The position numbers and the translations under genes were made by a program. Positions 12,029-37,745 of a DNA stretch of 37,745 nt are shown here, piece by piece. The stretch comes from an uncultured Anaerolineae bacterium. GTDB lineage: Bacteria > Chloroflexota > Anaerolineae > Fen-1058. How positions within the stretch are numbered: position 1 is the stretch's first letter; the number at the start of each line of letters is the position of its first letter. The notes below the pieces were generated by a model. That model did no database searches and was not told where the DNA came from. It worked only from the letters and a program-made list of their open reading frames with translations. The DNA lies in NCBI GenBank assembly GCA_964354595.1, contig CAYHAR010000005.1, forward strand, positions 1-37,745, read 5' to 3'.

Positions 12029-13111
12029 CTAGAACAAACTATTCAGGGCGCTTTCAAAACGATCTACGGCCGCATCCCAAGTAAAACGTGCTGCTACCGG
12101 AGGGCCTTTGACCCGCAAACGTTCGGCTAACGCCGTGTCGGTCAGCACTCGAATCATGGCCTGTGCCAAGGCCATCGGGTCATGTGGAGGCACCATCAGA
12201 CAATTATCTTCATCACGGGCGTACTCGTATGCCCCTCGTGTCGCCGTCAAGACTACCGGCGCGCCACAAGCCATCGCTTCTAGCGGCGGCAATCCGAAAG
12301 ACTCGAGCCACGAAGCTGAGACGAATAGATCACAGGTTGCATAGAGCCGTGCCAGTTCAACCCGCGTAGGCCGATAAATGTATTCATACGGCACATCCGT
12401 CTCAATCTGGCAATCTTCCTTGGAGACAATCAATAGTTTAATATCTTTCGCAATTTCATAAACTTGGGCTGCAGCCTGCAGAAAGTCGAACCACCCTTTG
12501 CGCGGACGCATATCGCCCAAATACAAAATGGTTCGCCGGTTGTCCAACTTGGGGCGTGCCTCGGGTGGCAAGGGATGGAAAAGCTCTGCATGGCTCAGCC
12601 CCTCACCAACCACTACTATTCTGCCAGGAGAATCAGTATTCAACTCCTGCCGCGAAAGATCTGACACCACCAGAGCAAGATCATGCCACCGCAAGGCATG
12701 GCGCAGCAACCATTCTTCGTAGGGCCGACCGGCGAACATCTCACGGTTGTCCTGATACAACCACACCAGTCGGCATCTTTTCAACAGGCGGGCCGCTAGG
12801 AAGCCCGCTACCGTTGTGGATGTGTGTGTGGAAATAACCACATGTGAAGGAGGTACTACCCGGGCCAGTGACCACGTGAGTAGAATCATATGCAAAATAC
12901 TCATTTGTGACTTGCGTGCTACACGGCTTTCCCACACGCTCACGCCAGTGCGCACCTCTTGCAACATATCAGGGTCAGAAGTGCCACCGGGCGTGATGAG
13001 AGTGACCCGGTGCCCTCTGGCGGTTAGGCGATTGGCGTATTCCACGATAACCCGCACGCCACCGTTAAGCCACAGAGACGACATAACAAAACTGATATAC
13101 ACGACTGTCAC
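12029..13111 (-). CDS. GT4 glycosyltransferase
   Basis: GGVRVIVEYANRL, RPRKG, ESFGLPPLEAMACG. Confidence 0.92.
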   Translation of the reverse strand: MTVVYISFVMSSLWLNGGVRVIVEYANRLTARGHRVTLITPGGTSDPDMLQEVRTGVSVWESRVARKSQMSILHMILLTWSLARVVPPSHVVISTHTSTTVAGFLAARLLKRCRLVWLYQDNREMFAGRPYEEWLLRHALRWHDLALVVSDLSRQELNTDSPGRIVVVGEGLSHAELFHPLPPEARPKLDNRRTILYLGDMRPRKGWFDFLQAAAQVYEIAKDIKLLIVSKEDCQIETDVPYEYIYRPTRVELARLYATCDLFVSASWLESFGLPPLEAMACGAPVVLTATRGAYEYARDEDNCLMVPPHDPMALAQAMIRVLTDTALAERLRVKGPPVAARFTWDAAVDRFESALNSLF

Positions 13112-15879
13112 TCCATCACATTTAGACAGATTGTCGTATCAGGGGTCGCATTGTGCAAAACCAGTTCATCTTGCATCCACTCCCAATCAAACTGCATGCG
13201 CTCGCCTGCATCGAACACGTTTGCCGGTCTGCTTCCTAGATTGACTTGCGTGCGCGTGCCACCTTCGAAGCATACTTGCCGGCTCCGGTTCTGTTGCAGC
13301 ACGAGAACCCAGCGGCCATCGGTAGCTGCGTCTTGCGTTTGCAGCCATTGCGCCGAGTCATTCTGCAAGAGAATCAAACTCTTGTCCTTGTCTGTCAATC
13401 TGATCTGCCAGCCGCCGGGCAAGCTTTGCGCTTCATACTGTGCGGAAGCCCACTGCCCCAACAAAAACACTGTCGCCAAATGAAGCTGCCCTGGCACAGG
13501 GGAATGATACATTACATTCCAGTTGGGCAGTCCAAGGTCGCCCTTGTCACTCTCTGCCCCAATGGGCTCAATGCTTGTACTCTGCCAGGCCTCTAGAGGT
13601 AGGATCATCCTCACTGGCAAAGGGCTCTCGCGCAGCCACATGCTATTGCCGTCACGACGTCCCTCACCCACCAGATGCCAGGCAATCGCCGGCTGCCCAC
13701 TGCCCTGGGCTGAATCTATCACGATGACAGGGCCTTGGGGGACAAAATAGACAGCGCGCGTATGTGACCAACTTCGCCAGTCGTTAATCGCCGTTCGACT
13801 GAAATCCAATGCGCCGAGCGTCTCAAACCTCTCAACCTGCGCATAGGGCGGCGGATCCTGCGACCACGCGTTGCCAACGCCGGTCAAAATCTGGAGGACG
13901 CGTGCCATACCGGACTGTGGAATCAACAAGCCATTGAGATTCTCGCGCGGCACGCGCTTATCGCGGAATGCAGCACGTCCGCGCGGTAGCCAGCCAATCG
14001 GCTGGTCGGTTGACTGCTCAACAACTATTGGGCCATTCTCATACAGGAGGGTCACCGTGTTTGTTGCCTTATAGCGATGCCACCCAGTGAACCGTAGGTT
14101 AAGCAACAAGTAGGCCGCTTCTGGCGACCAGCTATCTCGGAACACCACCTTATCTGGTGCCAGCGGCCCCGACTGATTGGGGAGGCCGGAATCGCCATAC
14201 AGCAAACAAGAGCCTTCAAGTGGAGAAGCGCCCGACAGCGGGATCGGTACCTCGATTCCAGGCTGCGCTGGCATGAAACCATCACGCTGCTCCAAATCAG
14301 AAAGCGCCCGCTCTGTCAGCCACACGTAACGTGCGTCAGATAGCAATCGTGCCCCTAGGTAGCTGATACCCGCCAACGATAGCCGACTGGGGTGATTATA
14401 CGTCAAGGCCGATCCATCAGGCAGAGCCTGCAAGAGTAACCACTCGAAAGAAAGCCGACGGTTGCGCTTGACTATTTCTGGTTCACCTCCCGTGCTTTGA
14501 TCGTAACCGAATTGGAAAAGAGCATTACTGATCCATTCAGGTTGATAGATGTAGGCATCATCTGTGTTTCGAAATCGCGCTGCCCACCCTCGCACATATC
14601 GGCGCAAGTAATCGCGATTCGCCTCCGATAGCTCTGGTGCACCCAGCCTCTCCTGCTCAAGCATAGCCAACAGCCCGGCCCCGTTTTCTTGGTTTTCGTA
14701 AGGGCCCTCCGGCCATTTTGAGAAGGCCAGGGCATACATCCAGTCCACCCATTCCACAGCCAAAGCACGGCGATTGACAGCAGCAAACCACATCTGCAAT
14801 GTGCTCCAATCTTGATCGGTAAATAAACCCGGAAAAGCTGCCCGAACACGGGGCGCATAATATGCTCCCAGGGCTGCCTCATGTTGCGTAGACTTGACAC
14901 TGTTGGCCGGCCCGGTGAATCGGCCCGCTCGCGCTTCGGCCAAAATTGCATCGCGAAACACTTCGGCCCAGCACTGCTGGTGCGTGCCCAGCGCCAACAG
15001 TGCAAATTCTGAGGGGCGCTTGTAAGGGTTTGCTTCGACGCGCGCCAAAAGCTGCCGATACACATCCACACCAGAAGGCTGCTGGGGATCAGCCGCAACT
15101 TGGCCGCACACGAATGGAGTGGTTTCTGTGATTCCGGGATAGGCGGGAGCCTCTGAAGTATAAAAACTATGCTGGTAAGCCACAAGGCCCCAGACGCCCA
15201 ACCCAATCATCATGCTGGTCAGGCCACCAATAATCACCAAGCTCGTCTCGCACGTTGGCCTGTCAATAATGTTTTCCGTTTTCACCCGGCGACGGTCCAG
15301 GTAACTCTGCCCGGACAAGAACAACAAACAAAAAACTACCAGAGCGATGCCCTGCACAAACACAAAGAATTCTTCATCTGAAAAGCGACCCTCGATTTGG
15401 CTGAGAATGATAGGCAGAAATCCACCGGCCCCGGCCAGGATCAATCGAGCTATCCAGCGTCCTACACGATTGCAAACCAGGGCTGCGACAACAGTCCGAT
15501 CCAGCCAAGCCAGCGACACGTACATCACAACGAGCGATAGCCAAGCTGCCCACGTGTGTTGGCTGAACGCATACCACGTACTGCTCGCTGCAAGGCCGAG
15601 GATCAGCCCGAGGGCTTGCCACGACCATCTATGCCAGCCGGAGCAACAGACGATTTCGCACAGTGCCAAAAGCCCAACGACGAAACTCACTGACCATAGC
15701 AAGCGGAGCACCAAATCGCCAGTGACGGACGGTGTGCTGGCGACTTGCACTATCCCCAGATAGCTGACCAGGCAAAACCATACCCCGATTCTATCTGCGA
15801 TCGCTCCAAACGCGATATTGCTGGCTTGCTGACTTGCCGGTTTATTGATCTCTACCCTCCGCCTGCCACAGATGAACAC
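13108..15879 (-). CDS. Polytopic membrane protein with extracellular heparinase II/III-like (alpha-toroid plus beta-sandwich) region
   Basis: About 7 N-terminal TM helices; 'VFRDSWSPEAAYLLLN...GWH...N.VTL..NG' and 'HTRAVYFV...VIVID' resemble Hepar_II_III. Start uncertain. Confidence 0.6.
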   Translation of the reverse strand: MFICGRRRVEINKPASQQASNIAFGAIADRIGVWFCLVSYLGIVQVASTPSVTGDLVLRLLWSVSFVVGLLALCEIVCCSGWHRWSWQALGLILGLAASSTWYAFSQHTWAAWLSLVVMYVSLAWLDRTVVAALVCNRVGRWIARLILAGAGGFLPIILSQIEGRFSDEEFFVFVQGIALVVFCLLFLSGQSYLDRRRVKTENIIDRPTCETSLVIIGGLTSMMIGLGVWGLVAYQHSFYTSEAPAYPGITETTPFVCGQVAADPQQPSGVDVYRQLLARVEANPYKRPSEFALLALGTHQQCWAEVFRDAILAEARAGRFTGPANSVKSTQHEAALGAYYAPRVRAAFPGLFTDQDWSTLQMWFAAVNRRALAVEWVDWMYALAFSKWPEGPYENQENGAGLLAMLEQERLGAPELSEANRDYLRRYVRGWAARFRNTDDAYIYQPEWISNALFQFGYDQSTGGEPEIVKRNRRLSFEWLLLQALPDGSALTYNHPSRLSLAGISYLGARLLSDARYVWLTERALSDLEQRDGFMPAQPGIEVPIPLSGASPLEGSCLLYGDSGLPNQSGPLAPDKVVFRDSWSPEAAYLLLNLRFTGWHRYKATNTVTLLYENGPIVVEQSTDQPIGWLPRGRAAFRDKRVPRENLNGLLIPQSGMARVLQILTGVGNAWSQDPPPYAQVERFETLGALDFSRTAINDWRSWSHTRAVYFVPQGPVIVIDSAQGSGQPAIAWHLVGEGRRDGNSMWLRESPLPVRMILPLEAWQSTSIEPIGAESDKGDLGLPNWNVMYHSPVPGQLHLATVFLLGQWASAQYEAQSLPGGWQIRLTDKDKSLILLQNDSAQWLQTQDAATDGRWVLVLQQNRSRQVCFEGGTRTQVNLGSRPANVFDAGERMQFDWEWMQDELVLHNATPDTTICLNVME

Positions 15880-18365
15880 ACAGAAACATCAAACGCAAAC
15901 ACGCCCACTTTGTCTTGCCGATACAGTAGCTTGAATTGCGGGGACGACTCTAAACTCGCAAGAGGCAACATGGGTTCCGGCGGCGGCAACGCGATCCGCC
16001 CTTGTCCCTGGCCCACGTAGACATGCGTGATACTGTGCTGGCACAGCAGCCGCATCCCCTCCGGCGATGTGACCCCAACCTGCCTGAGTTGCGCCACCAG
16101 ATCGGTCACAGCTTTATCATAGCCCGGTTGATAGGGCTTTTCATTCAGCAGCGCATATTGAGGCGGCATTGTGTTTTGCCGACCAGCCAACAGCGGAATC
16201 CACCATCCCGCATCCGATCCAACCACCGACCGACCATCATAGATCAAAAAGCCATCCACGAGAAAGCGAGCATCGCCCGGCGTATTGGCGCGAAGCCAAT
16301 CCATCGCTACCAAGTCAGCCGGAGCCACCAGGCGATACGACGGGTTTATGACTGCGCTGCGCTCCTTGGCGCCCCACGCTGCCAGGCCAATCAGCCCTAC
16401 GACCGCGGCCACTTTTCCCCACTGACGCAAACGCCCCAGATGCTCCAGCGCCGAGTCCAGCATATAACCACCCAATAGCCCGACGGGGATGTACAGACTG
16501 ATCATGATGGCAAAGCTTGCCATGTGGTTCGACCCCGGCAACCTGATGAGCCGCGTTGCCGTCAGTGCCGCCAATCCCGCAACCCACAAACCAATTGTCG
16601 CCACCGCGGCACGCTGCCGGCGCCGAGCCACGCCCCAGATCAGGCCGGCGACAGCCAATGCCATGAGAGCGACGGGAATGTAATGGGCAATGTCACGCCA
16701 TTGCCCATATTCGCGCAAAACCTGATCCAGCGTAGAGCCGTTGGTAACCCCGGCTTCAATCGTCGCGGCCAGACTGCCGCCTGCGATGTGCATCAGCCAC
16801 GGCACGATCAGCGCCAGCATTACCAGGCCCGTCACAATCAACCAAGCTGCCCACCTGATCCACGATCTCCAATCTAGTCTCCATCGCGGCAGACCGATTG
16901 CCAAAAGCCACGCAACGACGAATGCCGCGTAATAATGCGGCATTCGGTAGTACGATAAAAACATACCCGCCAGCGCCATGGCCGTGAGTAGCATTACGCG
17001 CCATCTCTGTTTCGCTTCTGCTTCGGCTAGCTCCCAGGTCAACCAGGCTGCGACCGGCAACACGGCTTGTCCTGCCAGTTGGGAATAACGTCCCCAATTC
17101 ACGTATTCCATCGGCAAAGGTGAAAGCAATCCGGCCACGAGCAGCGCGCCAATTCCCGCCCACCGGCTTATAGTCAAACGGCAGGCCAGCGGAACGAGGA
17201 CGAGGATGGCAAGGAAATTGATCATCTGCCCGGCTACCAATGTGTTGCGCGGGATAGCATTGCCCATTAGCCAATGCACAGCGGCGATGTCGCTGTGAAA
17301 TCCAAAATGAACCGTGAGTGTCCGAAAAGGAGTATACGGCAGCCACGAGTCGAACAGACCGCCGTGATCTACCATCAACTGACCGATGACTGCGTGCTGA
17401 ACTGAATCGCCCCAAAATGGAACTTGATAGCCACGGATGACGAACAGCCGCACTCCCAAGACCAACAACATAACCAACGCCAAAAGCGCGTCGGAGAGGA
17501 ACGCTTCGGAATGCATCCACCGTCCAAACGCGGCATGCGCCGCGGCGGGCGAAATGTGGATCACGCGACGATTGCGCCACCCTAGAGCGAGGGCGGATAC
17601 TGCCACCGGTCCCCACGCGGCTGCCACTCCCAATTGCGCGCCAATCACGCGCGCCCACAGCAATACGAGCGGATAGACGCACAGACTGAGGCCAGCAGAC
17701 AAACCCAGCATCTCGCCCCAGGTGAGTTTTCTTCCCGGCAACAGATACGTCAGCAGCGCCCAACCCGGCAGTATGAACAACGCCAGCATTACCAACAGAA
17801 CTTGCACGTCGGACAACGTATCCAGCAATACATTGGCGACTAACTCTCCCCACGCGTAATGAAGCTGAAAGGTCAGTTGCCTATCGCGCGGCTGGCCCGA
17901 CCGATACATCGCCCCATCGTCATAGGTCGGCCCAAGGCCACGCCCCACCGTGAGCGAGCTGCCTTCAGGCAATCCCTGCGCTTCAATCAGAAAATAGTAT
18001 CGCCTGGCGTGGGTGTCGTGGATCGGGGGAAACGAGAAAGTGTAAAAGCCGGGGCCAGAAACTCTGACCAGAGGCAGGCTTGCCTGAGCAACATCCCGTT
18101 CCGAGGTAGGATCAGTGCGGAGATGCAAAATGGCAACGCCATCGCCGGCGTTGCCATCTACCGCAGCCAATACACTGATGCCATTCAAGCCCCCGTGCCA
18201 TGCCACAAAAGTCTGTCCCACATTTTGCGTGGCGGTTACCGGGCTGCCTAGACCCAGGGAATTGTTCGGCTGTGTGGCATCCACAAAATCGGAGCAGCCG
18301 CTGGCCCACAACGCGATCAGCGCCAACAGAGGCAACAACCCAAAACGGCGATTGAACACTGCCAC
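15852..18365 (-). CDS. Large GT-C-like polytopic membrane protein with N-terminal lipobox-bearing extracellular domain
   Basis: Signal peptide with WASGC; more than 10 TM helices; loop 'WGDSVQH', 'WGRYSQL'; C-terminal 'AMDWLRANTP.DARFL' and 'ITHVY' as in GT-C soluble domains. Confidence 0.7.
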   Translation of the reverse strand: MAVFNRRFGLLPLLALIALWASGCSDFVDATQPNNSLGLGSPVTATQNVGQTFVAWHGGLNGISVLAAVDGNAGDGVAILHLRTDPTSERDVAQASLPLVRVSGPGFYTFSFPPIHDTHARRYYFLIEAQGLPEGSSLTVGRGLGPTYDDGAMYRSGQPRDRQLTFQLHYAWGELVANVLLDTLSDVQVLLVMLALFILPGWALLTYLLPGRKLTWGEMLGLSAGLSLCVYPLVLLWARVIGAQLGVAAAWGPVAVSALALGWRNRRVIHISPAAAHAAFGRWMHSEAFLSDALLALVMLLVLGVRLFVIRGYQVPFWGDSVQHAVIGQLMVDHGGLFDSWLPYTPFRTLTVHFGFHSDIAAVHWLMGNAIPRNTLVAGQMINFLAILVLVPLACRLTISRWAGIGALLVAGLLSPLPMEYVNWGRYSQLAGQAVLPVAAWLTWELAEAEAKQRWRVMLLTAMALAGMFLSYYRMPHYYAAFVVAWLLAIGLPRWRLDWRSWIRWAAWLIVTGLVMLALIVPWLMHIAGGSLAATIEAGVTNGSTLDQVLREYGQWRDIAHYIPVALMALAVAGLIWGVARRRQRAAVATIGLWVAGLAALTATRLIRLPGSNHMASFAIMISLYIPVGLLGGYMLDSALEHLGRLRQWGKVAAVVGLIGLAAWGAKERSAVINPSYRLVAPADLVAMDWLRANTPGDARFLVDGFLIYDGRSVVGSDAGWWIPLLAGRQNTMPPQYALLNEKPYQPGYDKAVTDLVAQLRQVGVTSPEGMRLLCQHSITHVYVGQGQGRIALPPPEPMLPLASLESSPQFKLLYRQDKVGVFAFDVSVCSSVAGGG

Positions 18366-22654: not shown

Positions 22655-24430
22655 TCAGTTAGTCAAGACGAAAGGCACATCGCTATACCAGCGGGCTGTG
22701 TTGTAGCCATCGGTTATTTCGGCCATGATGTAATAGGCGCCAGCCGATACCCCGGCCGTGTTCCATATCACCTTGGTCCCAGTCGGCGTTAGACCAGGCG
22801 GGGGATAACCCTGCACGACGAGGGGCAAATAAACACACACCGGGCCGCATGGGCTTGGTGCTGGAGCCGTGTAAACTTGGACCAGCGTCTTGCCGTTGGA
22901 CGGGTTAGTGTCGGCGTCATAATACAACGTCACCGTCACACCGGATGTTTCGGATAACTCGTACCAGATGGGCACCTGCGAGTTGATCCTGCCGGTGGGA
23001 TTGCCGGTGAGCAAGGCATAGTCAATGTGAAAAGTCCAGGGCACGCCCCGGATGTTTTCGTTCGGGTCAAAGCGGAACACACCCCACGACCCGGCTTGCC
23101 ACGGAGTACCGCCCGGCTCCAAGATCGCCTTAGTCAGGTCAAGCGTATACGTGTTCCAGCCAGGATAGATAACAATGTCATCGGTTGTCGTATGCAGACT
23201 GCCAGCCGAGGCAGCCCAAAGAGCGCGCGCCACCCAGCCGCCGTACAGGTCCCAGTTTCCTTCCAGCCACATCCGGACGCTAAAGTATTTGTACTTGCTG
23301 GTATCCACGGTCACCGGCGTGTTAAAGCGCAGGCGAGGGTCTCCGCCAGTGTTGGTGGCGTTAAACTGCCCTCCGGAGAACTGGTAACTGTCGAGGCCCA
23401 GGATAGACTTGAAGGCATTCGAATTGTCCATGTTCCACGGAACGCCAGCGTTAGTGGCGTAATCAGGCCCGGTGAGGTAGCTGGGATGGGTGACCCACAG
23501 CATCGGCGTCCCTTTGACGGTGAGGGTTCCACCGCTGTAAACGGTCGAGCTGCCATACTTGCCACACACGTAATAGTTGCCCGGCGCAATGTTGACCGGA
23601 AGCGGATAAGGCAGACCCGAAGGGCCACCCAGCGCAGCGCCCCAGGTGAAGGTGCCCGACGAAGATGGCGATGAGATAGATGCGATTTGTGGTCCGTCAC
23701 AACCGGACGTGTCCTCGTCCAGGTAGAGGCCCAAGCTGGAACCAGATACCCCGCTCCAACCGAGAGGAAGCATGTGCGTGGTGTCCAAGGGCGTGAGCCG
23801 CACCCAGTCAAGCTGCATGTCCACGCCAGCCGTCTTGATCGGATTGAGGCGCAGCCCAGTGACTGTGCCACTCCAGCCCGTGGCGCCTCCATAGTTGCCC
23901 CCCACATAGTTCAGCAGATCAACCGTATAGACGTGCCAACCTGTCTGGATGCTGATCCAGTTGGACCAGGCATACTTTGAATAAATTGGATCGTAGAACC
24001 AGTATATGTTCGCCAATCCTGCTACACTTGAATACATACGAAAGGAAAAGAAGCGGTATTTGCTGGCGTCAATCGGGTCCGCGACGCCGGTCTTGCCAAT
24101 GTTCTGGGCGCTGCCGTATCCCTGGTGCAGCACCCAGAAATATGGATCGGCGGTGGCAGTGCGAAAGCTCATAATTCCGCCGCTGAAGGCAACGTTCGAG
24201 ATGTTATTTATTTCCCAGACATCGCTGCTTTCGTTCATGTCCCACGGGTCGCGCAAGACGACGGTGGCAAAATCGTCTCCTCCGCCGACAGTGCTGCCAC
24301 TGGGAAAAGTGATGCTGGCCTGGGGCGTAGCTTGGGATGGTGTAGTCGTTCCCAAAAGCGAGAGCATGAGTAGGATGGCTAGAGAAAAGCCAATGGGCCG
24401 GGCCAAGTTGAGATGGCCGAGTGTTCTCAT
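22655..24430 (-). CDS. Secreted protein with two tandem CBM-like plus Ig-like units
   Basis: GGAGG RBS before ATG 24430; signal peptide. Duplicated motifs DFAT..DPWDM/DYAT..PWNM, IDASKYRFFSFRM/VDTSKYKYFSVRM, GWHVYTVDL/GWNTYTLDL, LDWVRLT/IDYALLT. Confidence 0.75.
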   Translation of the reverse strand: MRTLGHLNLARPIGFSLAILLMLSLLGTTTPSQATPQASITFPSGSTVGGGDDFATVVLRDPWDMNESSDVWEINNISNVAFSGGIMSFRTATADPYFWVLHQGYGSAQNIGKTGVADPIDASKYRFFSFRMYSSVAGLANIYWFYDPIYSKYAWSNWISIQTGWHVYTVDLLNYVGGNYGGATGWSGTVTGLRLNPIKTAGVDMQLDWVRLTPLDTTHMLPLGWSGVSGSSLGLYLDEDTSGCDGPQIASISSPSSSGTFTWGAALGGPSGLPYPLPVNIAPGNYYVCGKYGSSTVYSGGTLTVKGTPMLWVTHPSYLTGPDYATNAGVPWNMDNSNAFKSILGLDSYQFSGGQFNATNTGGDPRLRFNTPVTVDTSKYKYFSVRMWLEGNWDLYGGWVARALWAASAGSLHTTTDDIVIYPGWNTYTLDLTKAILEPGGTPWQAGSWGVFRFDPNENIRGVPWTFHIDYALLTGNPTGRINSQVPIWYELSETSGVTVTLYYDADTNPSNGKTLVQVYTAPAPSPCGPVCVYLPLVVQGYPPPGLTPTGTKVIWNTAGVSAGAYYIMAEITDGYNTARWYSDVPFVLTN

Positions 24431-24605
24431 TTTGCTTGCCTCCATTGCAATTTACTTTTGCCTGGCTTCTGCCGACGCGCGGCGCAGAGCGCGCGTCGGC
24501 CCCGAGGTTCCCAAGAACCATGGACGGGCGCGAGCGTCGGGGCGTGCGGAGGACCAGGTGACGTCTCGTGTCCGACCGTTTTGCGTCAGGCTGCCTGACG
24601 ATTAC

Positions 24606-25580: not shown

Positions 25581-26387
25581 TTATCTGTGTCGCAGCCAGG
25601 TGAGGTAACCACGGACTTGTCTGGTCAGAGCCTCTCCGCCTTGATACCACAGAGTATTCCAAGCGCGACCGGGCAAACGCCACAGGGAAGTCGGCGCAGG
25701 TTTCTGTCCTGGCTCGCCGGACTTTGTAACGTAAGCAATCACGTCACCGCCGAACGAGTCCAGGTCTTTGAACCGGACCTGCTCCGCGCCCAATAGCTGG
25801 ACGAACTTGATTTCCAACTCTTCGCGAGTGTAAAACACGTGCCAATGACATTCTTCGCCCTTGCAGATCATCTCACATACTTTACTATAGTCGCCATAAC
25901 CGATGTGCGGCGCTCTCTTCCAGGTAATAAAATGCAAAGCCGCCTTTCCCTTGGGTTTCAGGACTCGCATGATCTCGGCCAGAAGCAGAAAGGCCGCATG
26001 TTCCTCTATGTGCTGGATGCACGCGGTGCTATACACTTTGTCAAACACATGGTCCTCAAAGGGTATCGTCCTTCCATCGTAACGTTGCCAGGAGAGGGCT
26101 GGATGAGACAATCGCTTTTGAGCCAGTTCGAGTGTCGCCTCTGAAATATCGAGGCCAACTATCTTCTTGACCTGGCAGCGGCTTAAAAGCTCTTCGATGA
26201 TGTATCCGACCCCACAACCAAAATCCAGCACAATATCCTCTGCTCCAAAGAAGCCCGGCGGGAACATGGCTTTACAATAACCCTCTGCGCGCGCTTTTAA
26301 TTCTTCAGGAGTCATCACTCCGTCATGGCTTTTCACATTAAACTCACCCAGCGAATACGGCTTTATCCATGTATCTTGGTAGCTCAT
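25581..26387 (-). CDS. Class I SAM-dependent methyltransferase
   Basis: VLDFGCGVG, GLDIS, FDKVYS, LKPKG; start revised to ATG 26387 (GGAGG RBS). Confidence 0.88.
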   Translation of the reverse strand: MSYQDTWIKPYSLGEFNVKSHDGVMTPEELKARAEGYCKAMFPPGFFGAEDIVLDFGCGVGYIIEELLSRCQVKKIVGLDISEATLELAQKRLSHPALSWQRYDGRTIPFEDHVFDKVYSTACIQHIEEHAAFLLLAEIMRVLKPKGKAALHFITWKRAPHIGYGDYSKVCEMICKGEECHWHVFYTREELEIKFVQLLGAEQVRFKDLDSFGGDVIAYVTKSGEPGQKPAPTSLWRLPGRAWNTLWYQGGEALTRQVRGYLTWLRHR

Positions 26388-26475
26388 CCTTCCTCCATGG
26401 CGTGGGTTGTGAGGGCGGGGACGTCTATTCACCAACGCGCCTATGAACAACAGCATCCGACCGACTCTTTGCGCC

Positions 26476-27783
26476 TTATTGGTGTCTCATCCATGTGAGA
26501 TAAGAGCGAATTTCTTTGACCAAGGCAGCTCCGCCCTGGTACCACAGGATGCCGAATGTGCGAATAGGCAGTCGCCACCAAGGAGTCGGCTCGACCATCT
26601 TTTGTGCCGCCCCAGCCGGCATTGGGAGCCGGGGGCCGGTGCGCGCCCGATAGGCAGGCTTGCCATCTCCTTGCTCGAACCGGTCGGCGTTGCTAGGCGG
26701 CCGGGTCTTGCGCTTTTGGCCGACCAGCGTCACGCACTCGACTCCGTCCGGGAAAGCGCGTTTCATGACCGCGTTCAAGATGCTGATGGTGCGCTCAGCG
26801 TGGGCCAGGCTCTCGGGCGACTTGTCACACGCCAGATAGTAGAGATCGCGGAAACGATCCAGAAAGATATAGCGGTAGTCTGCCATGTCAATGTGAAAAT
26901 ATTTCTCGACGGAGGGGATGATGGCCCATTCGCTGCAATCTTCGTTGACGGAAGCCACGCCGGGAGGAATAGGAACCGACTTGATGCGCTCGTCTCGATA
27001 GCGCGGAAAGATGGCCTCTTGCGCCCAGTCGAGAAGCGCGGCGGCGACCAGGTTGGCTTTATGATTGTTCTGAATATGCTCGTCAATCGCGATGCAGCCA
27101 TTCATTTTGATGCTGTCGTACACACTCTGCATCAACTGGTCGAGGTCCGGCACGTGATGGAGCGAATGAAAGGCGAACACGACGTCCAAGCTTTCCGGCT
27201 TGAACCGCAGGTTGCCCATCGCAGCGCAGATGCACTCCAGGAAAACGCCTTGCTTCATCGCGTACTCTTTGGCCGTGCGCATGTTTTCCAGGCCCGGATC
27301 ATACGTGACCACGTCAAAGCCGCAGCGGGCCAGGTAAAACGAAGTCCAGCCGCTGCCGGAGCCGATGTCGAGCAATCGCCCGCCGCGCGCGACCAAAAGA
27401 TGTTCGGCCAACCGGGCAACCCCGGCTACCCGCTGCCGCTCTGTATGAGGGGCAGCCTCTCCCACCTGGTAAGGCAAAAAGCCGGGCACGTCGCCCCGCG
27501 AGTCCACATAGCCGGTATAGCCCTGGTCATAGTGCCAGCGATAAAAGGTTCCCCAATACTCGCCGTCCTTCTTGACGCTTTCTGGCATCAGGTCATACAA
27601 GGAGAGCACATAGTCAGCGATGGGCCAAGTCCGTTGGCATTCGCGGCAGACGACCTGTCCCTCCCTGACCTCTTCAACCTCTCGCTCGCCGTAGCGCACC
27701 TGTTCAGTTTGCGCCTGATGCAAAGCCAGACGGTCAGCGCCGCAGACAGGGCACAACATCAATTCGACTAGTTCGGCTCTCAT
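26476..27783 (-). CDS. SAM methyltransferase with N-terminal Trm112-like Zn-ribbon
   Basis: 'ELMLCPVCG...EGQVVCREC...WPI'; LLDIGSGSG; SLHHVPD; start revised to ATG 27783. Confidence 0.85.
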   Translation of the reverse strand: MRAELVELMLCPVCGADRLALHQAQTEQVRYGEREVEEVREGQVVCRECQRTWPIADYVLSLYDLMPESVKKDGEYWGTFYRWHYDQGYTGYVDSRGDVPGFLPYQVGEAAPHTERQRVAGVARLAEHLLVARGGRLLDIGSGSGWTSFYLARCGFDVVTYDPGLENMRTAKEYAMKQGVFLECICAAMGNLRFKPESLDVVFAFHSLHHVPDLDQLMQSVYDSIKMNGCIAIDEHIQNNHKANLVAAALLDWAQEAIFPRYRDERIKSVPIPPGVASVNEDCSEWAIIPSVEKYFHIDMADYRYIFLDRFRDLYYLACDKSPESLAHAERTISILNAVMKRAFPDGVECVTLVGQKRKTRPPSNADRFEQGDGKPAYRARTGPRLPMPAGAAQKMVEPTPWWRLPIRTFGILWYQGGAALVKEIRSYLTWMRHQ

Positions 27784-27790
27784 CGTGTTC

Positions 27791-29080
27791 TCACTCCACG
27801 GGACCAAACTGTTGGTCAAGCTGGAATAGAGTGACCAGTTTTTTCTGCACCTGCTCGTAGCCGGGATCAATAAAGTTGGGCTGATACGGGACGCCAAAGA
27901 GATGCACGATCTCGCCATCAGCCCGACGACGGGCGGCCTGCACCCGCTGCCGCTTGGCCAACATCACGGGATAAAAGCGAGCCACGTCGCTGCCGGCGAC
28001 CAGTAGGCTGTAGGCCGTGCTGGGAATCTCTATCAGGTCATCATCCGTCAGGCGAGGCAGCCAAGAAGACAGCACTCGTCCGGGCCCACCGCGCCGACGC
28101 AGCTCCGCTCGCGTTTTCGACCAAAGCGCGCACATTCCTTCCTGGCGCAACGTGCGCCACGCTTCGCGCCAGTAATACTCTGCGGTATAAACCGGCTGAG
28201 CCGGTTGCGGCGGCATCGTGGGGCGGCGCTCCACTCGGAATGCTGCCGGGTCGAACCCGGGGCGCGCGTAGAGATAGGCCCGTTCCAGCATCAGGAGCAA
28301 CGCGACCGGCAACACTCGCACCAGGTTTTCGTCGCCGTAATTCTTGATGAGCGAATAGAGCGCGTTGCGCTCGTAGAGAACCAGCTTGCGCTCTTGTCCG
28401 ACTTGACCCCAGTAACCATGATGAACGTGATAGGAGACCGAGCGGCCGGCCAGCATCGCTCGGTAACCCATCACCCACAGCCGCCAGCCCAGGTCGGTAT
28501 CTTCAAAGTAGGCAAAAAAATCTTCGTCAAAGCCGCCAACGTCGAGAAAGACCTGGCGATTCACCAGCATCGCGCCTCCGCACGGCGCGAGAATCTCTCG
28601 ATCCTCTGTATAATCGTCAACACGCTCGTCGCCATAGCCGATCTGCCAACCGTGGCCGTAGAAATTATGGAGTGAACCGGCAAAGTCAATTCGCTTGCCA
28701 TCCCAACTCAGTATCCGCGAGCCGACGGCGACCACGTCGTCCGCGGCCAGCACCGGCTTGACCAACTCGGTCAGCCAAGTCGGCTCGACCCGCATATCGT
28801 TGTTCAGAAGGGCAACATATTCTCCTTTGGCTTCAGCCGCGGCCAGGTTGTTGGCCCGCGAAAAGCCATAGTTGTGCGGCAAGGCGACGATCCGCACTTG
28901 TGGAAAGTGCTTTTGCGCAAACTTGCGCGAGTCGTCCGTCGAGGCATTGTCCGCCAGAATCAATTCCAGCCGGTCGGTCGGATAGTCCAGCGCCAGCAGC
29001 GAACGAAAGCAAGGCTCCAGGTGTTGCACGCCGTTGTAGTTGAGGACGATCACGCTGACATGAGGCCAGTCCACGCTCAA
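27791..29080 (-). CDS. GT2 glycosyltransferase with C-terminal extension
   Basis: VLNYNG, DNASTD, LNND, FFAYFEDTDLGWR; TTG 29080 with GGAG RBS overlaps the upstream TGA. Confidence 0.9.
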   Translation of the reverse strand: MSVDWPHVSVIVLNYNGVQHLEPCFRSLLALDYPTDRLELILADNASTDDSRKFAQKHFPQVRIVALPHNYGFSRANNLAAAEAKGEYVALLNNDMRVEPTWLTELVKPVLAADDVVAVGSRILSWDGKRIDFAGSLHNFYGHGWQIGYGDERVDDYTEDREILAPCGGAMLVNRQVFLDVGGFDEDFFAYFEDTDLGWRLWVMGYRAMLAGRSVSYHVHHGYWGQVGQERKLVLYERNALYSLIKNYGDENLVRVLPVALLLMLERAYLYARPGFDPAAFRVERRPTMPPQPAQPVYTAEYYWREAWRTLRQEGMCALWSKTRAELRRRGGPGRVLSSWLPRLTDDDLIEIPSTAYSLLVAGSDVARFYPVMLAKRQRVQAARRRADGEIVHLFGVPYQPNFIDPGYEQVQKKLVTLFQLDQQFGPVE

Positions 29081-30459
29081 TGCTCCAGTTTCCACACCAG
29101 GTAGCCAATGATCTCGCGCTTCAGGGCGGCCCATCCGCCTTGGCGCAAGCTGCGCCACGCCTTGACCAGCCTCTCTCCCCACGAACGAGCGGGACGTGGT
29201 GGAACCGCCGTTGCGTATGTCGTAAACGTCAACTCTATCAGTCGCCTGCCTCGATCAGGAGCGAGCCGGGGGGCGCGACAAAACTCTACCAGGGGGCGGG
29301 TGGTTTGCTCCCAACGATAGGCGCGCGCCAGGTCGGCAAAGCACGGAGCGAGATCGGCTTTGAGGTTGGGGGTGGCGAGCAAGTCCAAGATGGCCTGGGC
29401 TAGGCCCGACGCATCCTGATAGCCGACGACGGCACCCAATCGGTGCCGCTCCACCAATTCGCTGGCCGTGTCGCCTTCAGTCGCGATGATTGGCAGCCCG
29501 GCCCAGATGTAATCGAGCACGCGATTACGAAAGGCAAAGCGGGTTTCGACGTGTTCCAGGTGGAGGGAAAGACCCAGGTCGGCTTCGAGCAGATAATTCT
29601 CGCGCTCCTGGTAAGGAATCCAATCGTGGAAGAAAACGTGCCGGTCGGTCAGGCCCAATTTGTCGCTCAAGCTCATCGTCTGCTGGCACATGGGCGAAAC
29701 GGCTGTGACGTTGGGGCTGGGATGGCGCGTGGCGGCGAAAAAGACGACGACCTCGGGTCGTTTCTCGATCACCTGCGGCATCGCGTGGACGAGTGTGAGT
29801 GGATCGAGCCAGTCGTAGAGGCCACCGCCCCAGAACAACACTCGGGCATCGGGAGGAATGCCGCTGTAGACGCCTTTCAGCACGGGCTGGCGGTGTCGAG
29901 GCGGCTCGTCGGGCAAGCCAAACGAGACCACGTCCACCAGGCGACGGAGCGATGGATCGTCGGCGTAGGTCGTTGGATTGACGCGGCCCAGGGCGGCGAG
30001 CATGCCGATCCAATAATCGCGCTGCCGCTCGCTGTTGCAAACAAAATAGTCCCCAACTGCCAGTTGCTCGTTCAACACTGCTGCGCCATCCCGAAAGACG
30101 TGCCACTGAAATTCCTGTCCCTTGCCTTCGGAGATAAAGTGTTGAATGTTTTCCAGGACAAAAGAGTGAGGTACGCTCAAGACCAGAGGCATCGGCAGCA
30201 TTTTCAGAAATGGAAAGCGCTTGAGCGCATAGCCCGAAGTGACCACGACATCGTTTTCGCTGACCATCGCCTGCAACGCCTCCGCCGAGTCATAGCGGCG
30301 CAGACTAAAATCAGATGGCGACAGGTCGCTTTCGTTGGGGATGGCCAGGGTGACGCGGCAATGCCGGCTCAACACGCGAGCGTATTCCCAGTCGCGGACG
30401 GCTGGTCCGGACATCTTGCTGCCGACGTGATCCTCACTGACAATCAATACCCTGTTCAT
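29077..30459 (-). CDS. GT4-like glycosyltransferase
   Basis: GSKMSGPAVR, WGGGLYDWLDP, ETRFAFRNRVLDYIWAGLP. Confidence 0.88.
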   Translation of the reverse strand: MNRVLIVSEDHVGSKMSGPAVRDWEYARVLSRHCRVTLAIPNESDLSPSDFSLRRYDSAEALQAMVSENDVVVTSGYALKRFPFLKMLPMPLVLSVPHSFVLENIQHFISEGKGQEFQWHVFRDGAAVLNEQLAVGDYFVCNSERQRDYWIGMLAALGRVNPTTYADDPSLRRLVDVVSFGLPDEPPRHRQPVLKGVYSGIPPDARVLFWGGGLYDWLDPLTLVHAMPQVIEKRPEVVVFFAATRHPSPNVTAVSPMCQQTMSLSDKLGLTDRHVFFHDWIPYQERENYLLEADLGLSLHLEHVETRFAFRNRVLDYIWAGLPIIATEGDTASELVERHRLGAVVGYQDASGLAQAILDLLATPNLKADLAPCFADLARAYRWEQTTRPLVEFCRAPRLAPDRGRRLIELTFTTYATAVPPRPARSWGERLVKAWRSLRQGGWAALKREIIGYLVWKLEH

Positions 30460-31829
30460 CGTTGTGTCGGTTCCTGTTCTTGCCCAAAGAAATTTTGTAT
30501 CCCGCAGGCCTCGGCCAGGTCTTGCAGTGTTTGTATATAGTACGAGTTTGGATAGTCGGCTCCCAAAGGCCAGCGAAAGAGTGCAAATATTTCTTGGTCA
30601 GACCGGCGGCGACGACTTTGAACAACCTGGCGCTTTTGCATCAGGCGAGGCAAGTCTTGCGCCAGGTCATCGGCGGCGATCAGGTGACTGACAGTACGTT
30701 TGTCTACAGAGGTGCGACCAGGCCCAGCTCGCCGATTCACCCGGCGACTCGGTGAGCGCGGCAGCCGAGGCCGATTCTGCCAGCGGTTCCTTGCTTCGAT
30801 GGCGGCTTTGCGCCACAACTCTCCCGGTCCATCGTCTCGCAAGGTCCGCCAGGCCTCGCGGAGATAGTAGGCGATGTTGTAGGTTTGTTGTCCTGCGGAA
30901 CCTAAAGCCCTTCGGCGCGGAGTATTGATGTGTGGGACTTCGGTGTACAGATGAGGCGCGATCGCGCGTGGCTCGGAGCGCACGCGCGACGAGTCCACAC
31001 GGGTCGCCAGATAGGCCCGTCGCAGGTACAGCAAAAGCGCCGCCGGCAACACGCGGCTCAACTGCTCGTCGCCATAGTTCTTGAACAGGGTGCTGAAAGC
31101 GTTGCGCTGGTAGAGCAACACGATCTTTTCGTTGGACACCCGTTTCCACGAGCCATGATGGATGTGGTAGGCAATCGCACGAGGCGCGTAGACGACTTTG
31201 TGTCCCATCACCCACAGCCGCCAACCCCAATCCAAATCTTCGTAAAAGGCAAAATAGTCTTCGTCAAAACCGCCGCTATCTAAAAAGACTTGGCGATCTG
31301 TCAGCATTGCTCCGCCGCATGGCGCCAGGATGAGCTTTTCCTGGTCATGCGTCGTCGCCGGGTCTCCCCAGCCTTCCTGATAACCATAGCCCAACACATT
31401 CATCCCCGAGCCGGCAAAATCAATGCGCCGGCCATCCCAGCTCAATATCTTGGATGCAACGCAGACAATGTCGGGGTCGCGCTGCATGGGAGCCGCCAGC
31501 TCAACCAGCCAGTCAGACGCGACGCGCATATCGGGGTTCAGAAAAGCCACCCACTGTCCGCGCGCCCGGCGAGCGCCTTCGTTGTTGCCGCGCGCAAAGC
31601 CATAGTTTTCGGGGTTGGCAACCGTCGTGATCTGGGGGAAGCGAGAAGCGGCGAACTCGAGCGAGCCATCGGTCGAGGCATTGTCCACCAGCATCAGCTC
31701 GAGTTGCTCAGCCGGGTAACGCAATGCCAACAAGGAGCGAAAGCAGGTTTCCAGGTGCTGGCGGCTGTTGTAGCTCAGGACGACAACGGTCACCGAAGGC
31801 AAGGCGGCGCTGGGAGGGAGGCTGACCAT
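30456..31829 (-). CDS. GT2 glycosyltransferase with C-terminal extension
   Basis: VLSYN, VDNASTDGS, LNPD, YFAFYEDLDWGWR; paralog of 27791-29080. Confidence 0.9.
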   Translation of the reverse strand: MVSLPPSAALPSVTVVVLSYNSRQHLETCFRSLLALRYPAEQLELMLVDNASTDGSLEFAASRFPQITTVANPENYGFARGNNEGARRARGQWVAFLNPDMRVASDWLVELAAPMQRDPDIVCVASKILSWDGRRIDFAGSGMNVLGYGYQEGWGDPATTHDQEKLILAPCGGAMLTDRQVFLDSGGFDEDYFAFYEDLDWGWRLWVMGHKVVYAPRAIAYHIHHGSWKRVSNEKIVLLYQRNAFSTLFKNYGDEQLSRVLPAALLLYLRRAYLATRVDSSRVRSEPRAIAPHLYTEVPHINTPRRRALGSAGQQTYNIAYYLREAWRTLRDDGPGELWRKAAIEARNRWQNRPRLPRSPSRRVNRRAGPGRTSVDKRTVSHLIAADDLAQDLPRLMQKRQVVQSRRRRSDQEIFALFRWPLGADYPNSYYIQTLQDLAEACGIQNFFGQEQEPTQR

Positions 31830-33309: not shown

Positions 33310-34284
33310 CTATATCGTTTTGCCTTGGACTCGCCGCCAAAATTCCTGGGTGGCGATCATCAAGCGCATCACTCGCCCATTGCGAAAGGCTTTTACCAGC
33401 TCCGCCTGCTGTTTTACCTCTTGCTTCAGTTGTGTTATCTGCTGTGACCGCAGCACATCATCCTCGCGCTGAAATCTTTCCAGTCTCCGCCAAATGTCCT
33501 GTTGAATGAGGGCATAGTCAGCCTTGTCAACCCAAGTCAGATCAACGGGCTTGGGCAAGGCACTTGGTTTGCAAAGAAAAAGCGTCCCCCAGGCTCCATG
33601 CCACCTTTCTTCCTGCCAGAGGCTTTCGGAGAAATGCCGGTTCCCTACAATCTCCAGCCCGGAAGGCCGAACGATACGCGTTTCAATCTCATCGGGCGAC
33701 ATAAAACCTTGACAGTCCGGCTCCAGGTAACCATAGTCGAACGTCAGTCCCAGAACTCCCCCTGGCTTGAGAACACGCGCCATTTCTTGAACAGCGCGTT
33801 CCTGTCTTTTGATGTGTTCCAAGACACAGATGGAAAGTACATGGTCAAAGGTTCCCGCTGAGAAAGGCAGGTCTGCTGCATCGCTCAACAGATTGAACAG
33901 CTTCCACTTCATGACATTGGCGACACGATTAGCGTTGGTGGCCAGGGCAGGATTCAAGTCTATTGTGTAAACTGTAGCGCCTTTGCTGGCAAGGTAGAAA
34001 GAAAGCAGCGTGGACGACTCGCCAATGCCCAACACGACTGAGCGGCTCGACACACCTGAGAAAGTGATCGCCATACACATCTCCCAGTACTTCCACAACG
34101 CACGCTCAGGCCAGGCACGGTCACGTGCCACTGGGCTATGAAAAGGCTGAAAGTCTCCCAAGAAACTTGTATGGCGCAATCCTTTTTCGTTCAGAGCAAT
34201 CCTGAGGCGCTCAAAATCTTCCACCAGCGCAAGAAAGGAAACGCGCTGCAAGTCGGAGAGCTCGATAGATTTATTGATAATCAC
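33310..34284 (-). CDS. Class I SAM methyltransferase with C-terminal coiled coil
   Basis: LPF..GTFD, ICVLEHI, RVLKPGG; tail QQITQLKQEVKQQAELVKAFRNGRVMRL. Confidence 0.82.
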   Translation of the reverse strand: MIINKSIELSDLQRVSFLALVEDFERLRIALNEKGLRHTSFLGDFQPFHSPVARDRAWPERALWKYWEMCMAITFSGVSSRSVVLGIGESSTLLSFYLASKGATVYTIDLNPALATNANRVANVMKWKLFNLLSDAADLPFSAGTFDHVLSICVLEHIKRQERAVQEMARVLKPGGVLGLTFDYGYLEPDCQGFMSPDEIETRIVRPSGLEIVGNRHFSESLWQEERWHGAWGTLFLCKPSALPKPVDLTWVDKADYALIQQDIWRRLERFQREDDVLRSQQITQLKQEVKQQAELVKAFRNGRVMRLMIATQEFWRRVQGKTI

Positions 34285-36300: not shown

Positions 36301-37533
36301 TTACAGTTTCCCTACACGGGCGTCCCACTGCGATGGCACGTAGATCAATCCGTATTGTTCGGCCACGCCGCCCGGCTTGACGGTAAAGCGAGCGCACTTG
36401 TGCCAGTGGTCAAAAGAGTGAATACCGGCATGATCATAGATAGCGGCAGAGACAAAATAGTCCCCGGCCAGGAATGGCAAAGCCGGAATGATATAGTCCA
36501 CGTACCCCTCACCCTCGATATAAGGGATATCGTAATCGGAAAACACATTGTTCGGGCCGCTCAAATGTGTCCCTGTGCTGGCGTGATAAAACGCCAGGCC
36601 CACCTGAGGCTGAGGAATGCGCTGGCGCGCGTCATGATGCATCCGCACCACCACCCGCTCGCCCGTGGTAAAGACATGACGAAGCTGCCCGTCACTGCCG
36701 AGAAACTCGACTGACGTGATCTCGACCTCGCCACTGCCCCACCGGATGCCGGGCACATCGGCCGGCTGGGCAACCCGCTGGCCGGGAGCCGGCTGGCTAT
36801 GAGTGGCAACGCTCTCCCGGTATGCGTCGAGCACTTGCTCCACGCTGCCGTCGAGTTGCACTTGACCATCTTCCAGCCACACCGCGCGCGAGCACAGGCT
36901 GGATACCGTGCCCAGCTCGTGCGACACAAAGAGAATGGTCATCCCCTGATGCTGAAGCTCACGGACGCGCTGCAGACATTTGGCCTGAAAGCTCTGGTCG
37001 CCCACCGCCAGGACCTCGTCCACCAACAGAACCTCTGGCTCCACGTGAATCGCCACTGCAAACGCCAGCCGCATGTACATGCCCGACGAATAATGTTTTA
37101 CCGGCACGTCAATGAATTGGTCAAGCTCGGAAAAGGCGACCACGTCGTCGAATTTGCGCTCCATCTCACGGCGTCGGATGCCCAACACGGACCCGTTGAG
37201 GAACACATTCTCGCGGCCAGTCAGGTCAGGATGAAAGCCGGCGCCCAGCTCCAACAGCGCCGCCACACGGCCCCGGACGTGTATCTGGCCGGACGATGGC
37301 CCGATGACCTTGGTGATGAGCTTGAGCAGCGTGCTCTTGCCGGCGCCGTTATCGCCGATCACGCCGACCGTCTCGCCCGAGTAGACGGAGAAAGACACAT
37401 CCTGCAGCGCCCACATCTGCTCGCTGGGCCGAGGCTTCCACCCGTTGGTCACCAGTTCGAGAAATGAACGGGGGCGCTCGCGCTGAAGGAGAAATCTCTT
37501 GGAGACGTGGTCGAGTTGAATCTTGCTTTCCAT
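36301..37533 (-). CDS. wzt: Polysaccharide ABC exporter ATPase with Wzt C-terminal carbohydrate-binding domain
   Basis: GDNGAGKST, LELGAGF, YSSGM..RLAF, DEVLAVGD, then 'RWGSGEVEIT' Wzt_C domain; start revised to ATG 37533. Confidence 0.92.
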   Translation of the reverse strand: MESKIQLDHVSKRFLLQRERPRSFLELVTNGWKPRPSEQMWALQDVSFSVYSGETVGVIGDNGAGKSTLLKLITKVIGPSSGQIHVRGRVAALLELGAGFHPDLTGRENVFLNGSVLGIRRREMERKFDDVVAFSELDQFIDVPVKHYSSGMYMRLAFAVAIHVEPEVLLVDEVLAVGDQSFQAKCLQRVRELQHQGMTILFVSHELGTVSSLCSRAVWLEDGQVQLDGSVEQVLDAYRESVATHSQPAPGQRVAQPADVPGIRWGSGEVEITSVEFLGSDGQLRHVFTTGERVVVRMHHDARQRIPQPQVGLAFYHASTGTHLSGPNNVFSDYDIPYIEGEGYVDYIIPALPFLAGDYFVSAAIYDHAGIHSFDHWHKCARFTVKPGGVAEQYGLIYVPSQWDARVGKL

Positions 37534-37570
37534 TTTGCCGGACGCATCCTGGCCCAGAGAGGCGAGCGAT

Positions 37571-37579
37571 ATTATACCA
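37571..37579 (-). promoter_or_regulatory. Extended -10 promoter upstream of wzt
   Basis: TGGTATAAT about 38 nt upstream of the ATG. Confidence 0.55.
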
Positions 37580-37613
37580 CATCCCGACCAAGCCCCGGTG
37601 GATACAGCGAGCG

Positions 37614-37745
37614 TCAGATGTCCGATTCCTCTCCGCTGGCAGTCCACACTCCGGGCCAGACTCGACGCGCCGCCAGGTTACGCAAAATCGCCCCCGGCAT
37701 ATTCGGTGTTGACAAAATGGGCAAGTCGGGGTAGAAATCATACAC
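37614..37745 (-). CDS. Possible 3' end of an upstream gene (partial)
   Basis: Frame is open from the window edge: VYDFYPDLPILSTPNMPG...EESDI*; not hydrophobic, so unlike Wzm. Confidence 0.35.
   Translation of the reverse strand: MYDFYPDLPILSTPNMPGAILRNLAARRVWPGVWTASGEESDI

Follow-up and report, generated by a model that had tools for sequence, protein, structure and literature searches.

The window analysed here is a 37,745-nt stretch of contig CAYHAR010000005.1 (assembly GCA_964354595.1) from an uncultured Anaerolineae bacterium, whose genome comprises 4.58 Mb in 586 contigs and is 92.8% complete. It contains a single long string of genes on the minus strand, five consecutive members of which encode enzymes that share a segment of about 33 residues, rich in Trp, Arg and Leu (16% R, 12% L and 10% W over the copies in the window) and with one invariant Gly. 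These enzymes are two class I S-adenosylmethionine (SAM) methyltransferases (MT_a and MT_b), two GT-A fold glycosyltransferases of family 2 (GT2_a and GT2_b), and one GT-B fold glycosyltransferase (GT4). The string begins with Wzt and continues with an NAD-dependent epimerase, RmlD, a methyltransferase, RmlC, a second methyltransferase, GT2_b, GT4, GT2_a, MT_b, MT_a, a further methyltransferase, a secreted protein lacking a Pfam assignment, four more glycosyltransferases, and finally two large polytopic membrane proteins.

All five genes lie on the minus strand, and the shared segment, hereafter the module, occupies two kinds of position in their products. MT_a (25581..26387 in the called form of 268 aa, P0002; open reading frame (ORF) to 26456; Methyltransf_25, E 4e-21, also Methyltransf_11) carries it as its last 33 residues (25584..25682), preceded by a Pro-rich linker that extends to about 25718. 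MT_b (26476..27783, called form of 435 aa, P0001; ORF to 27918; Methyltransf_11, E 4e-17) and GT4 (29077..30459, 460 aa, P0004; Glyco_trans_1_4) likewise end in the module, at 26479..26577 and 29080..29178, respectively, the latter copy following a linker of low model confidence. The copies in GT2_a (27791..29074, called form of 427 aa, P0005; ORF to 29182) and its paralogue GT2_b (30456..31829, called form of 457 aa, P0008; ORF to 31937), both assigned to Glycos_transf_2, are internal, at 28082..28180 and 30774..30872; that of GT2_a separates the GT2 core from a conserved helical region at the C-terminus. Counted along each ORF, the motif [AT][WF]..L[WR]..G...L begins at residue 265 of 291 in MT_a, 454 of 480 in MT_b and 434 of 460 in GT4, and at residue 341 of 463 in GT2_a and 362 of 493 in GT2_b, about 100 residues before the end of the protein. 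Four of the five ORFs were shortened at their 5' ends by the gene calls of the protein collection, and the resulting genes abut or overlap by a few bases, as at the start of GT4, where the overlap with GT2_b is four bases. The N-terminus of MT_b (ORF residues 46-104, before the methyltransferase domain) contains a Trm112-like zinc-ribbon region, matched by NCBIfam Trm112_arch at E 7e-9, which is below the curated cut-off, and by Pfam Trm112p at E 0.006.

A preliminary description of this DNA had placed the module on these five enzymes, had found it missing from the other glycosyltransferases and methyltransferases of the window, and had proposed a search of Pfam and of genomes with a profile of the five segments. 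Among the 50,548 six-frame ORFs of at least 50 aa in the genome, such a profile matched the five source genes only (E 8e-18 to 7e-16; next E 0.13), a circular result in that the profile was built from the same genes. A non-circular profile, made from 29 tails of other genomes only, placed the same five genes at the top of the 50,548 ORFs, with E values of 1.9e-10 for MT_a, 3.7e-9 for MT_b, 2.7e-8 for GT2_a, 1.2e-9 for GT4 and 1.2e-5 for GT2_b, and a sixth ORF at 0.098. Profile scoring did not detect the module in the remaining glycosyltransferases and methyltransferases of the window. Both the sites and the absences are thus as described, and the five genes stand far above chance. No Pfam or NCBIfam model covers the segment, and scans with the full-length proteins match the catalytic domains. 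When 34 isolated tails were compared with Pfam at E <= 1, just four single-member matches at chance level appeared (best DUF6098, E 0.011). The search for structural look-alikes of the GT4 tail in the ESM Atlas gave no usable match, and no description of the tail family was found in the open-access papers searched.

The copies resemble one another across otherwise unrelated hosts. By BLASTP, MT_a and MT_b are similar in the tail only (59% over 37 aa, E 8e-14), as are MT_a and GT4 (E 1e-4), and the alignment of GT2_a with GT4 covers both module segments (E 0.003). GT2_a and GT2_b are paralogous along their whole length (47% over 456 aa); therefore the hosts, initially counted as five enzymes from three unrelated families, do represent three folds, but amount to four independent host contexts. 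A profile of 16 GT4-type tails from other genomes matched the GT4 and both methyltransferases of the window (E <= 1.4e-8), reached GT2_b at E 0.13 only and did not list GT2_a among its ten best matches, so that the variant inside the GT2 proteins is, judged by sequence, the most diverged version of the module. The subtypes of the tail are specific to host type and kept across genomes. We also considered recent gene conversion between the tails and rejected it, because the tail-coding stretches within the window have nucleotide identities of 0.28-0.65 and share few identical codons at identical residues; the copies are therefore old.

Comparison with fused enzymes in other genomes reveals how the module is apportioned. 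The GT2_b and GT4 of the window correspond to the two halves of fused GT2-GT4 proteins found elsewhere (E ~1e-120 for the GT4 part and ~1e-70 to 1e-100 for the GT2 part), the GT4 of the window being the orthologue of the C-terminal half. In all eight fused proteins examined, the C-terminal helical region of the GT2 part is kept, the internal module is lacking, and a single module stands at the very end. Among stand-alone GT2 homologues (alignment A7), 18 of 19 have the module inserted between the GT2 core and the C-terminal helical region; the most diverged internal copy, from locus L056, is shortened, and the nineteenth sequence, P0024, has its module at the C-terminus. In five of the eight fused proteins, a profile of the GT2-internal segments matches the C-terminal tail (i-E 3.6e-5 to 2e-3), and it has no match inside any of the eight; this supports kinship between the internal segment and the C-terminal tails. 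The rule that follows is one module per polypeptide, under which a fused enzyme would need one anchor and split enzymes one each.

Since the segments are short and the GT4-type profile recognises the GT2-internal variant weakly (E 0.13 for GT2_b), one might suspect Arg/Trp-rich low-complexity ends that resemble one another by chance, without common origin or function. However, the profile from other genomes retrieves precisely five genes of 50,548 ORFs, four orders of magnitude above the next, and the module is kept on orthologues across families of the phylum. Together with the finding that the GT2-internal profile selects the C-terminal tails of fused proteins and nothing internal, this ranking effectively refutes chance resemblance, to which we attach a next to negligible probability.

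Beyond the window, 9 of 41 related genomes contain the module at E <= 0.01, as do at least 20 of 401 genomes sampled across Chloroflexota at E <= 0.001, the genome of the window being counted in both; as the larger survey scored at most 19 first-look candidates per genome, 20 is a lower bound. On these profile matches, it is a recurrent module of Chloroflexota. A search of 1.84 billion representative proteins with the 33-column profile returned five proteins at E <= 0.001, a small number because such a profile is too short for a library of that size. Word-indexed searches with tail alignments, in which long proteins crowd out relatives, gave 10 proteins at E <= 0.001 and 16 at E <= 10, mostly window proteins and their close Chloroflexota relatives, and a scan of genome contigs with a three-sequence alignment found only its own two source records.

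The 20 fetched loci contain 24 matches, 19 of which finish no more than 9 residues from the end of the ORF and two within 15-22 residues; of the other three, two are internal in orthologues of GT2_a/b, and one is at the N-terminus of a radical SAM/SPASM protein. By Pfam assignment, the hosts are nine fused GT2-GT4 proteins (833-1272 aa as stop-to-stop ORFs), nine proteins with GT4-type domains only, two GT2 proteins, two methyltransferases (one Methyltransf_11, one Methyltransf_9-like) and one radical SAM enzyme. The last host has no Pfam match at 1e-5, yet is similar to the GT4 of the window (phmmer E 1e-56). The module is also carried by WsaF-like GT4 proteins, by a double-GT2 protein, at its C-terminus, and, from the representative-protein search, by P0013, a tailed 777-aa double GT4 with one WsaF-like half. 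The claim that the module is portable therefore stands, since linkers with a predicted local distance difference test (pLDDT) score below 50 join it to unrelated catalytic folds.

Three of these loci deserve separate mention. The radical SAM/SPASM protein (L046:8202-9458, minus strand), with the module at ORF residues 9-39, is the sole N-terminal case and the sole host seen that is neither a glycosyltransferase nor a methyltransferase; its neighbours are Polysacc_synt_2 and otherwise housekeeping genes. At L038:9390-10334 (minus strand, genome G055), a DDE_Tnp_4 transposase gene lies between a tailed MT_b orthologue and a tailed GT4 gene. At L051:7796-10386 (minus strand), two adjacent GT4 homologues (phmmer E 2e-106 and 1e-56) differ in their tails: the 414-aa protein stops where the linker would begin and is tail-less, and its 451-aa neighbour is tailed.

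Structural models were obtained with AlphaFold2 for GT4 (26 sequences, mean pLDDT 87.7) and GT2_a (19 sequences, mean pLDDT 84.3). In the GT4 model, the GT-B body is followed by short helices, a linker at 411-422 with pLDDT <50, and then one continuous helix at 427-459 (pLDDT 64-84). In GT2_a, the module forms one helix (298-327) between two stretches with pLDDT <50 (282-292 and 332-346), after which comes a confident helical C-terminal region. The top Foldseek PDB chains aligned to this model with VIA-align match its GT-A catalytic domain only (ppGalNAc-T2, Z 26.6; GlfT2, Z 20.3). A disordered linker thus joins the helix to the catalytic module in both models, and a Pro-rich stretch directly precedes the modules of MT_a and MT_b, in agreement with the Pro-rich or disordered linkers first described. 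The helix-turn-helix that had been proposed for the module is not supported, as both models give a single continuous tethered helix. A kink or hairpin may occur in those tails in which Pro directly follows Gly (47%), a residue that GT4 and GT2_a, the two proteins modelled, do not have at this position.

The consensus of 34 tails reads pTPxWrLP-x-kAWxxLRxxGxxxLxxExrxYLRWR. The Gly is the sole residue that is invariant, and A, W, L, R, L, E, Y, L and W are each present in 65-85% of these tails, which come from different hosts. When the consensus is projected on a straight helix, the conserved columns fall on one face at spacings of 3-4, with a conservation moment of 0.35 (shuffle mean 0.16; reached by 1.5% of shuffles). 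This face points roughly along the hydrophobic direction, and the Gly and the Glu, the latter conserved in 74% of the tails, are near its centre.

Such spacing, together with the small Gly and Ala residues that allow close packing of helices, would suit tails that bundle into homo- or hetero-oligomers and so tie the enzymes directly to one another. The presence of several tagged enzymes in the same locus also fits this explanation. Clustering within genomes was checked with full candidate scoring in six of them. The strong matches are confined to a single stretch in the genome of the window (G000, five of five within 6.3 kb), in G042 (three of three within 2.9 kb), in G055 (three of three within 7 kb) and in G005 (two of two within 1.4 kb), and these four genomes co-encode several tagged enzymes. 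G021 has one strong match and, on a second contig, a weak one (E 0.004), and G047 has, under full scoring, a single tailed protein, a fused GT2-GT4. The strong matches thus lie in one glycan locus in each of the genomes examined in this way. In the phylum survey, with its 19-candidate limit, 17 of 20 genomes gave one match each. Because many genomes carry one tailed protein, the fused GT2-GT4, tail-to-tail hetero-assembly cannot be the general role; moreover, helices with a net charge of about +5 would repel each other unless neutralised. A complex prediction for two copies of a 45-residue tail (alignment A6) scored 0.02 against a mark of 0.42, which speaks neither for nor against self-association. 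On balance, we regard oligomerisation as improbable.

The composition of the module points toward the membrane. Across the 34 tails, the net charge ranges from +1 to +10 (median +5), and Trp, Tyr and Arg are abundant. The term amphipathic, which had been applied to the whole module, is moderately supported: the first half of the window segments has hydrophobic moments of 0.40-0.78 (reached by 1.7% to 28% of shuffles), and the second half does not rise above shuffles. HeliQuest-style analyses of lipid binding use thresholds of 0.68 and 1.34 for the discriminant D, calculated here in 18-residue windows as 0.944 x hydrophobic moment + 0.33 x net charge. D is above 1.34 in 23 of the 34 tails and above 0.68 in 32, compared with 4.4% of 18-residue background windows above 1.34. 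None of the five hosts has a transmembrane-like segment (Kyte-Doolittle 19-residue maximum <1.6 in each); three tail-less GT2 proteins of the window have transmembrane-like segments at their C-termini.

Because the module is tethered, independent of position and present once per polypeptide on soluble enzymes that act on a membrane-bound, lipid-linked chain, it is most likely a localisation tag. As to what it binds, its charge, its content of Trp, Tyr and Arg, the location of conserved and hydrophobic positions on a common helix face, and the precedents of the C-terminal helices of KpsC and WbdD favour the membrane interface, and we give roughly an even chance to the proposal that the module is a tethered cationic anchor of that type. 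The cationic helix, about 33 residues long and hung on a tether that is disordered and in many cases rich in Pro, would lie in the interface of the membrane on its cytoplasmic side. Each enzyme that serves one Wzt (ABC-transporter)-dependent pathway and would otherwise be soluble would thereby be kept beside the growing lipid-linked chain, so that polymerisation by GT2 and GT4 and modification by the methyltransferases would take place on one membrane-bound substrate. That the receptor is the lipid bilayer itself and not a protein is the inferred step in this proposal.

Several observations weigh against a lipid anchor. Amphipathicity is moderate (median hydrophobic moment 0.35 in the 34 tails), the column-mean moment is reached by 8.6% of shuffles, and for the second half of the window segments a fraction of 0.17-0.75 of shuffled sequences reaches the observed moment. 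High D values come mainly from charge, and the median of the tails is reached by 8% of background 33-mers. The conservation of the sequence, with its invariant Gly and central Glu, is tighter than a generic lipid-binding helix needs and fits a specific partner better. The confinement of strong matches to one locus per genome is likewise awkward, as other glycan pathways might be expected to use a general membrane anchor too. Lastly, the helix may pack on the catalytic core.

The tight conservation and the confinement to one locus lend some weight to a pathway-specific docking tag, in which the helix binds one shared protein receptor, such as Wzm/Wzt, a DUF6541-like membrane protein or a scaffold; we consider this possible, although on the whole unlikely. 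By analogy with the recruitment of WbdA by WbdD, all tagged enzymes would be assembled into one glycan factory. The residue-specific conserved face, the clustering of all strong matches in one locus in the four genomes with several tagged enzymes, and the long maintenance of the motif implied by host-type subtypes kept across genomes and by low nucleotide identity are in its favour, and WbdD provides a precedent for a recruitment site, as described in PMC11231755. The strong positive charge and the richness in Trp, Tyr and Arg, on the other hand, look like those of a lipid-interface helix.

Candidate partners can be sought among the neighbouring genes. The Wzt-type ABC transporter ATPase of the window (36301..37647, minus strand; ABC_tran, E 9e-23) has a Wzt_C glycan-terminus-binding domain (E 2e-23). 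In 13 of the 20 tail-bearing loci, the 12-19 kb fetched include a Wzt homologue (E <= 1e-70), often directly adjacent, and nine of these 13 homologues also match the Wzt C-terminal domain. The two polytopic membrane proteins at the end of the string, at 15852-18365 (837 aa) and 13108-15879 (923 aa), both on the minus strand, have no Pfam match. Homologues of the 837-aa protein directly adjoin the tailed fused GT2-GT4 gene in five loci (L043, L048, L050, L052 and L055), and the one in L048 matches DUF6541; the 837-aa protein is a candidate partner or downstream glycan-handling protein. Both associations would suit the docking tag. However, neither Wzt, for which no homologue was found within the fetched 12-19 kb of 7 of 20 loci, nor the 837-aa protein is universal. 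In addition, most carriers are orthologous polymerase genes, so that linkage to Wzt is largely inherited synteny rather than 13 independent events and cannot count as independent evidence. The loci without Wzt still contain glycan genes, e.g., Wzy_C, GT2, GT4, Polysacc_synt_2 and PMT_2. The expectation that the module resides in Wzt-linked glycan loci therefore holds for 13 of 20 loci, with the reservation that this linkage is mostly inherited.

In its most specific form, the docking proposal makes the helix an address code: a dedicated membrane receptor of the pathway would recognise its Gly and its face of Trp, Leu, Glu, Tyr and Trp. We hold this, like the docking tag in general, to be possible but on the whole unlikely. 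If it is true, the enzymes, tagged once each, would be joined into a single machine for polymerisation, methylation and export, and evolution could rewire this machine by moving the tag: the GT2 gains it on splitting from GT4, and methyltransferases and a radical SAM enzyme are tagged in turn. The preliminary description had offered a membrane anchor or docking into one complex as alternatives. The character of the module as a localisation tag agrees with both, and we lean toward the anchor.

A further role would be in substrate handling, where the basic helix binds the head group of polyprenyl diphosphate or the nascent glycan and thereby tunes chain length or processivity. The many conserved Arg/Lys positions of the tails are compatible with it, and removal of the C-terminal helix of KpsC is described as altering the length distribution of the product in vitro (PMC10148158). 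However, the same module occurs on GT-A, GT-B, methyltransferase and radical SAM hosts, at the C-terminus, at the N-terminus or in a loop, and always on a flexible tether, and the rule of one module per polypeptide fits localisation better. We consider this role very improbable.

Other features of the window concern the pathway at large. The tail-less Methyltransf_11 protein at 33310-34284 (minus strand) ends in about 60 residues that by eye look like a heptad-rich coiled coil. As coiled coils are typical of glycan chain terminators according to PMC11231755, this methyltransferase may be a candidate WbdD-like terminator of the pathway. A 596-aa protein at 22655-24445 (minus strand), in the middle of the glycan operon, has a signal-like hydrophobic N-terminus and no Pfam match; homologues of it are present in two tail-bearing loci, L042 and L056. 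A carbamoyltransferase at 7629-9588 (minus strand) is split into two overlapping ORFs, with Carbam_trans_N at 8398-9588 and Carbam_trans_C at 7629-8567, which suggests a frameshift, a pseudogene or an assembly error.

Enzymes of ABC-transporter-dependent glycan pathways must find their lipid-linked chain at the membrane, and how they are gathered there is known in detail in a handful of proteobacterial cases, for example WbdD/WbdA and KpsC. The present locus is a natural experiment in this respect, as one tag is found on four unrelated enzyme scaffolds, once on each, and is lost from the GT2 on fusion to GT4. It is also a clean test case for distinguishing a lipid anchor from a specific docking code. 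Because the module is absent from Pfam and NCBIfam, it is currently unannotated; a profile built from alignment A6 would serve as a sequence marker of those enzymes in Chloroflexota glycan loci whose substrate is the membrane-bound polymer, and removal of the tail offers a handle for making these enzymes soluble.

Among known systems, KpsC of the E. coli group 2 capsule is a close counterpart. As described in PMC10148158, it ends in an amphipathic helix that follows a disordered tether, is thought to drive membrane association, contains basic or non-polar residues only, and upon removal leaves a soluble enzyme. As far as this published description allows the comparison, both KpsC and the tailed GT4 are cytoplasmic glycosyltransferases that end in a helix rich in basic and non-polar residues, with a disordered tether before it (pLDDT <50 in the AlphaFold models of both). 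However, the module, compared here with the KpsC helix by description, is not restricted to basic or non-polar residues: besides the invariant Gly it has a conserved Glu (the column found in 74% of the 34 tails) and polar positions, with Gln, Ser and Thr common. Furthermore, the KpsC helix belongs to one protein family, whereas the module occurs in at least four unrelated host families of one locus and can also be internal or N-terminal.

The analogy with the C-terminus of WbdD, the chain terminator of E. coli O9a and K. pneumoniae O3, which the preliminary description had drawn, is apt, since PMC11231755 describes a membrane-associated amphipathic helix at this position. Both systems include methyltransferase-containing enzymes in a Wzt-dependent pathway. 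WbdD, however, has a long coiled-coil ruler before its helix, and the five window proteins have no coiled coil before the module; instead, short helices and a low-confidence linker are present in the GT4 model, and a Pro-rich stretch in the MT_a and MT_b sequences. In addition, WbdD is the sole anchored partner and recruits WbdA, whereas here each enzyme has its own copy, and the commonest carrier of the module is the polymerase itself (GT4 or fused GT2-GT4).

Membrane-targeting amphipathic helices of the MinD/FtsA type have about 10-15 residues and are conserved mainly in pattern. Like them, the module is short, terminal, tethered, cationic and, to a moderate degree, amphipathic, and it is portable between proteins; unlike them, it spans about 33 residues, shows residue-specific conservation and belongs to one biosynthetic locus. 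The notion of an undescribed system is therefore too strong: what the locus contains is an undescribed sequence family within a known class of device, in which peripheral enzymes of glycan assembly bear a tethered helix at the C-terminus. New with respect to these systems is a family outside Pfam and NCBIfam that is common to GT-A, GT-B, methyltransferase and radical SAM hosts and keeps to one copy per polypeptide across fused and split forms.

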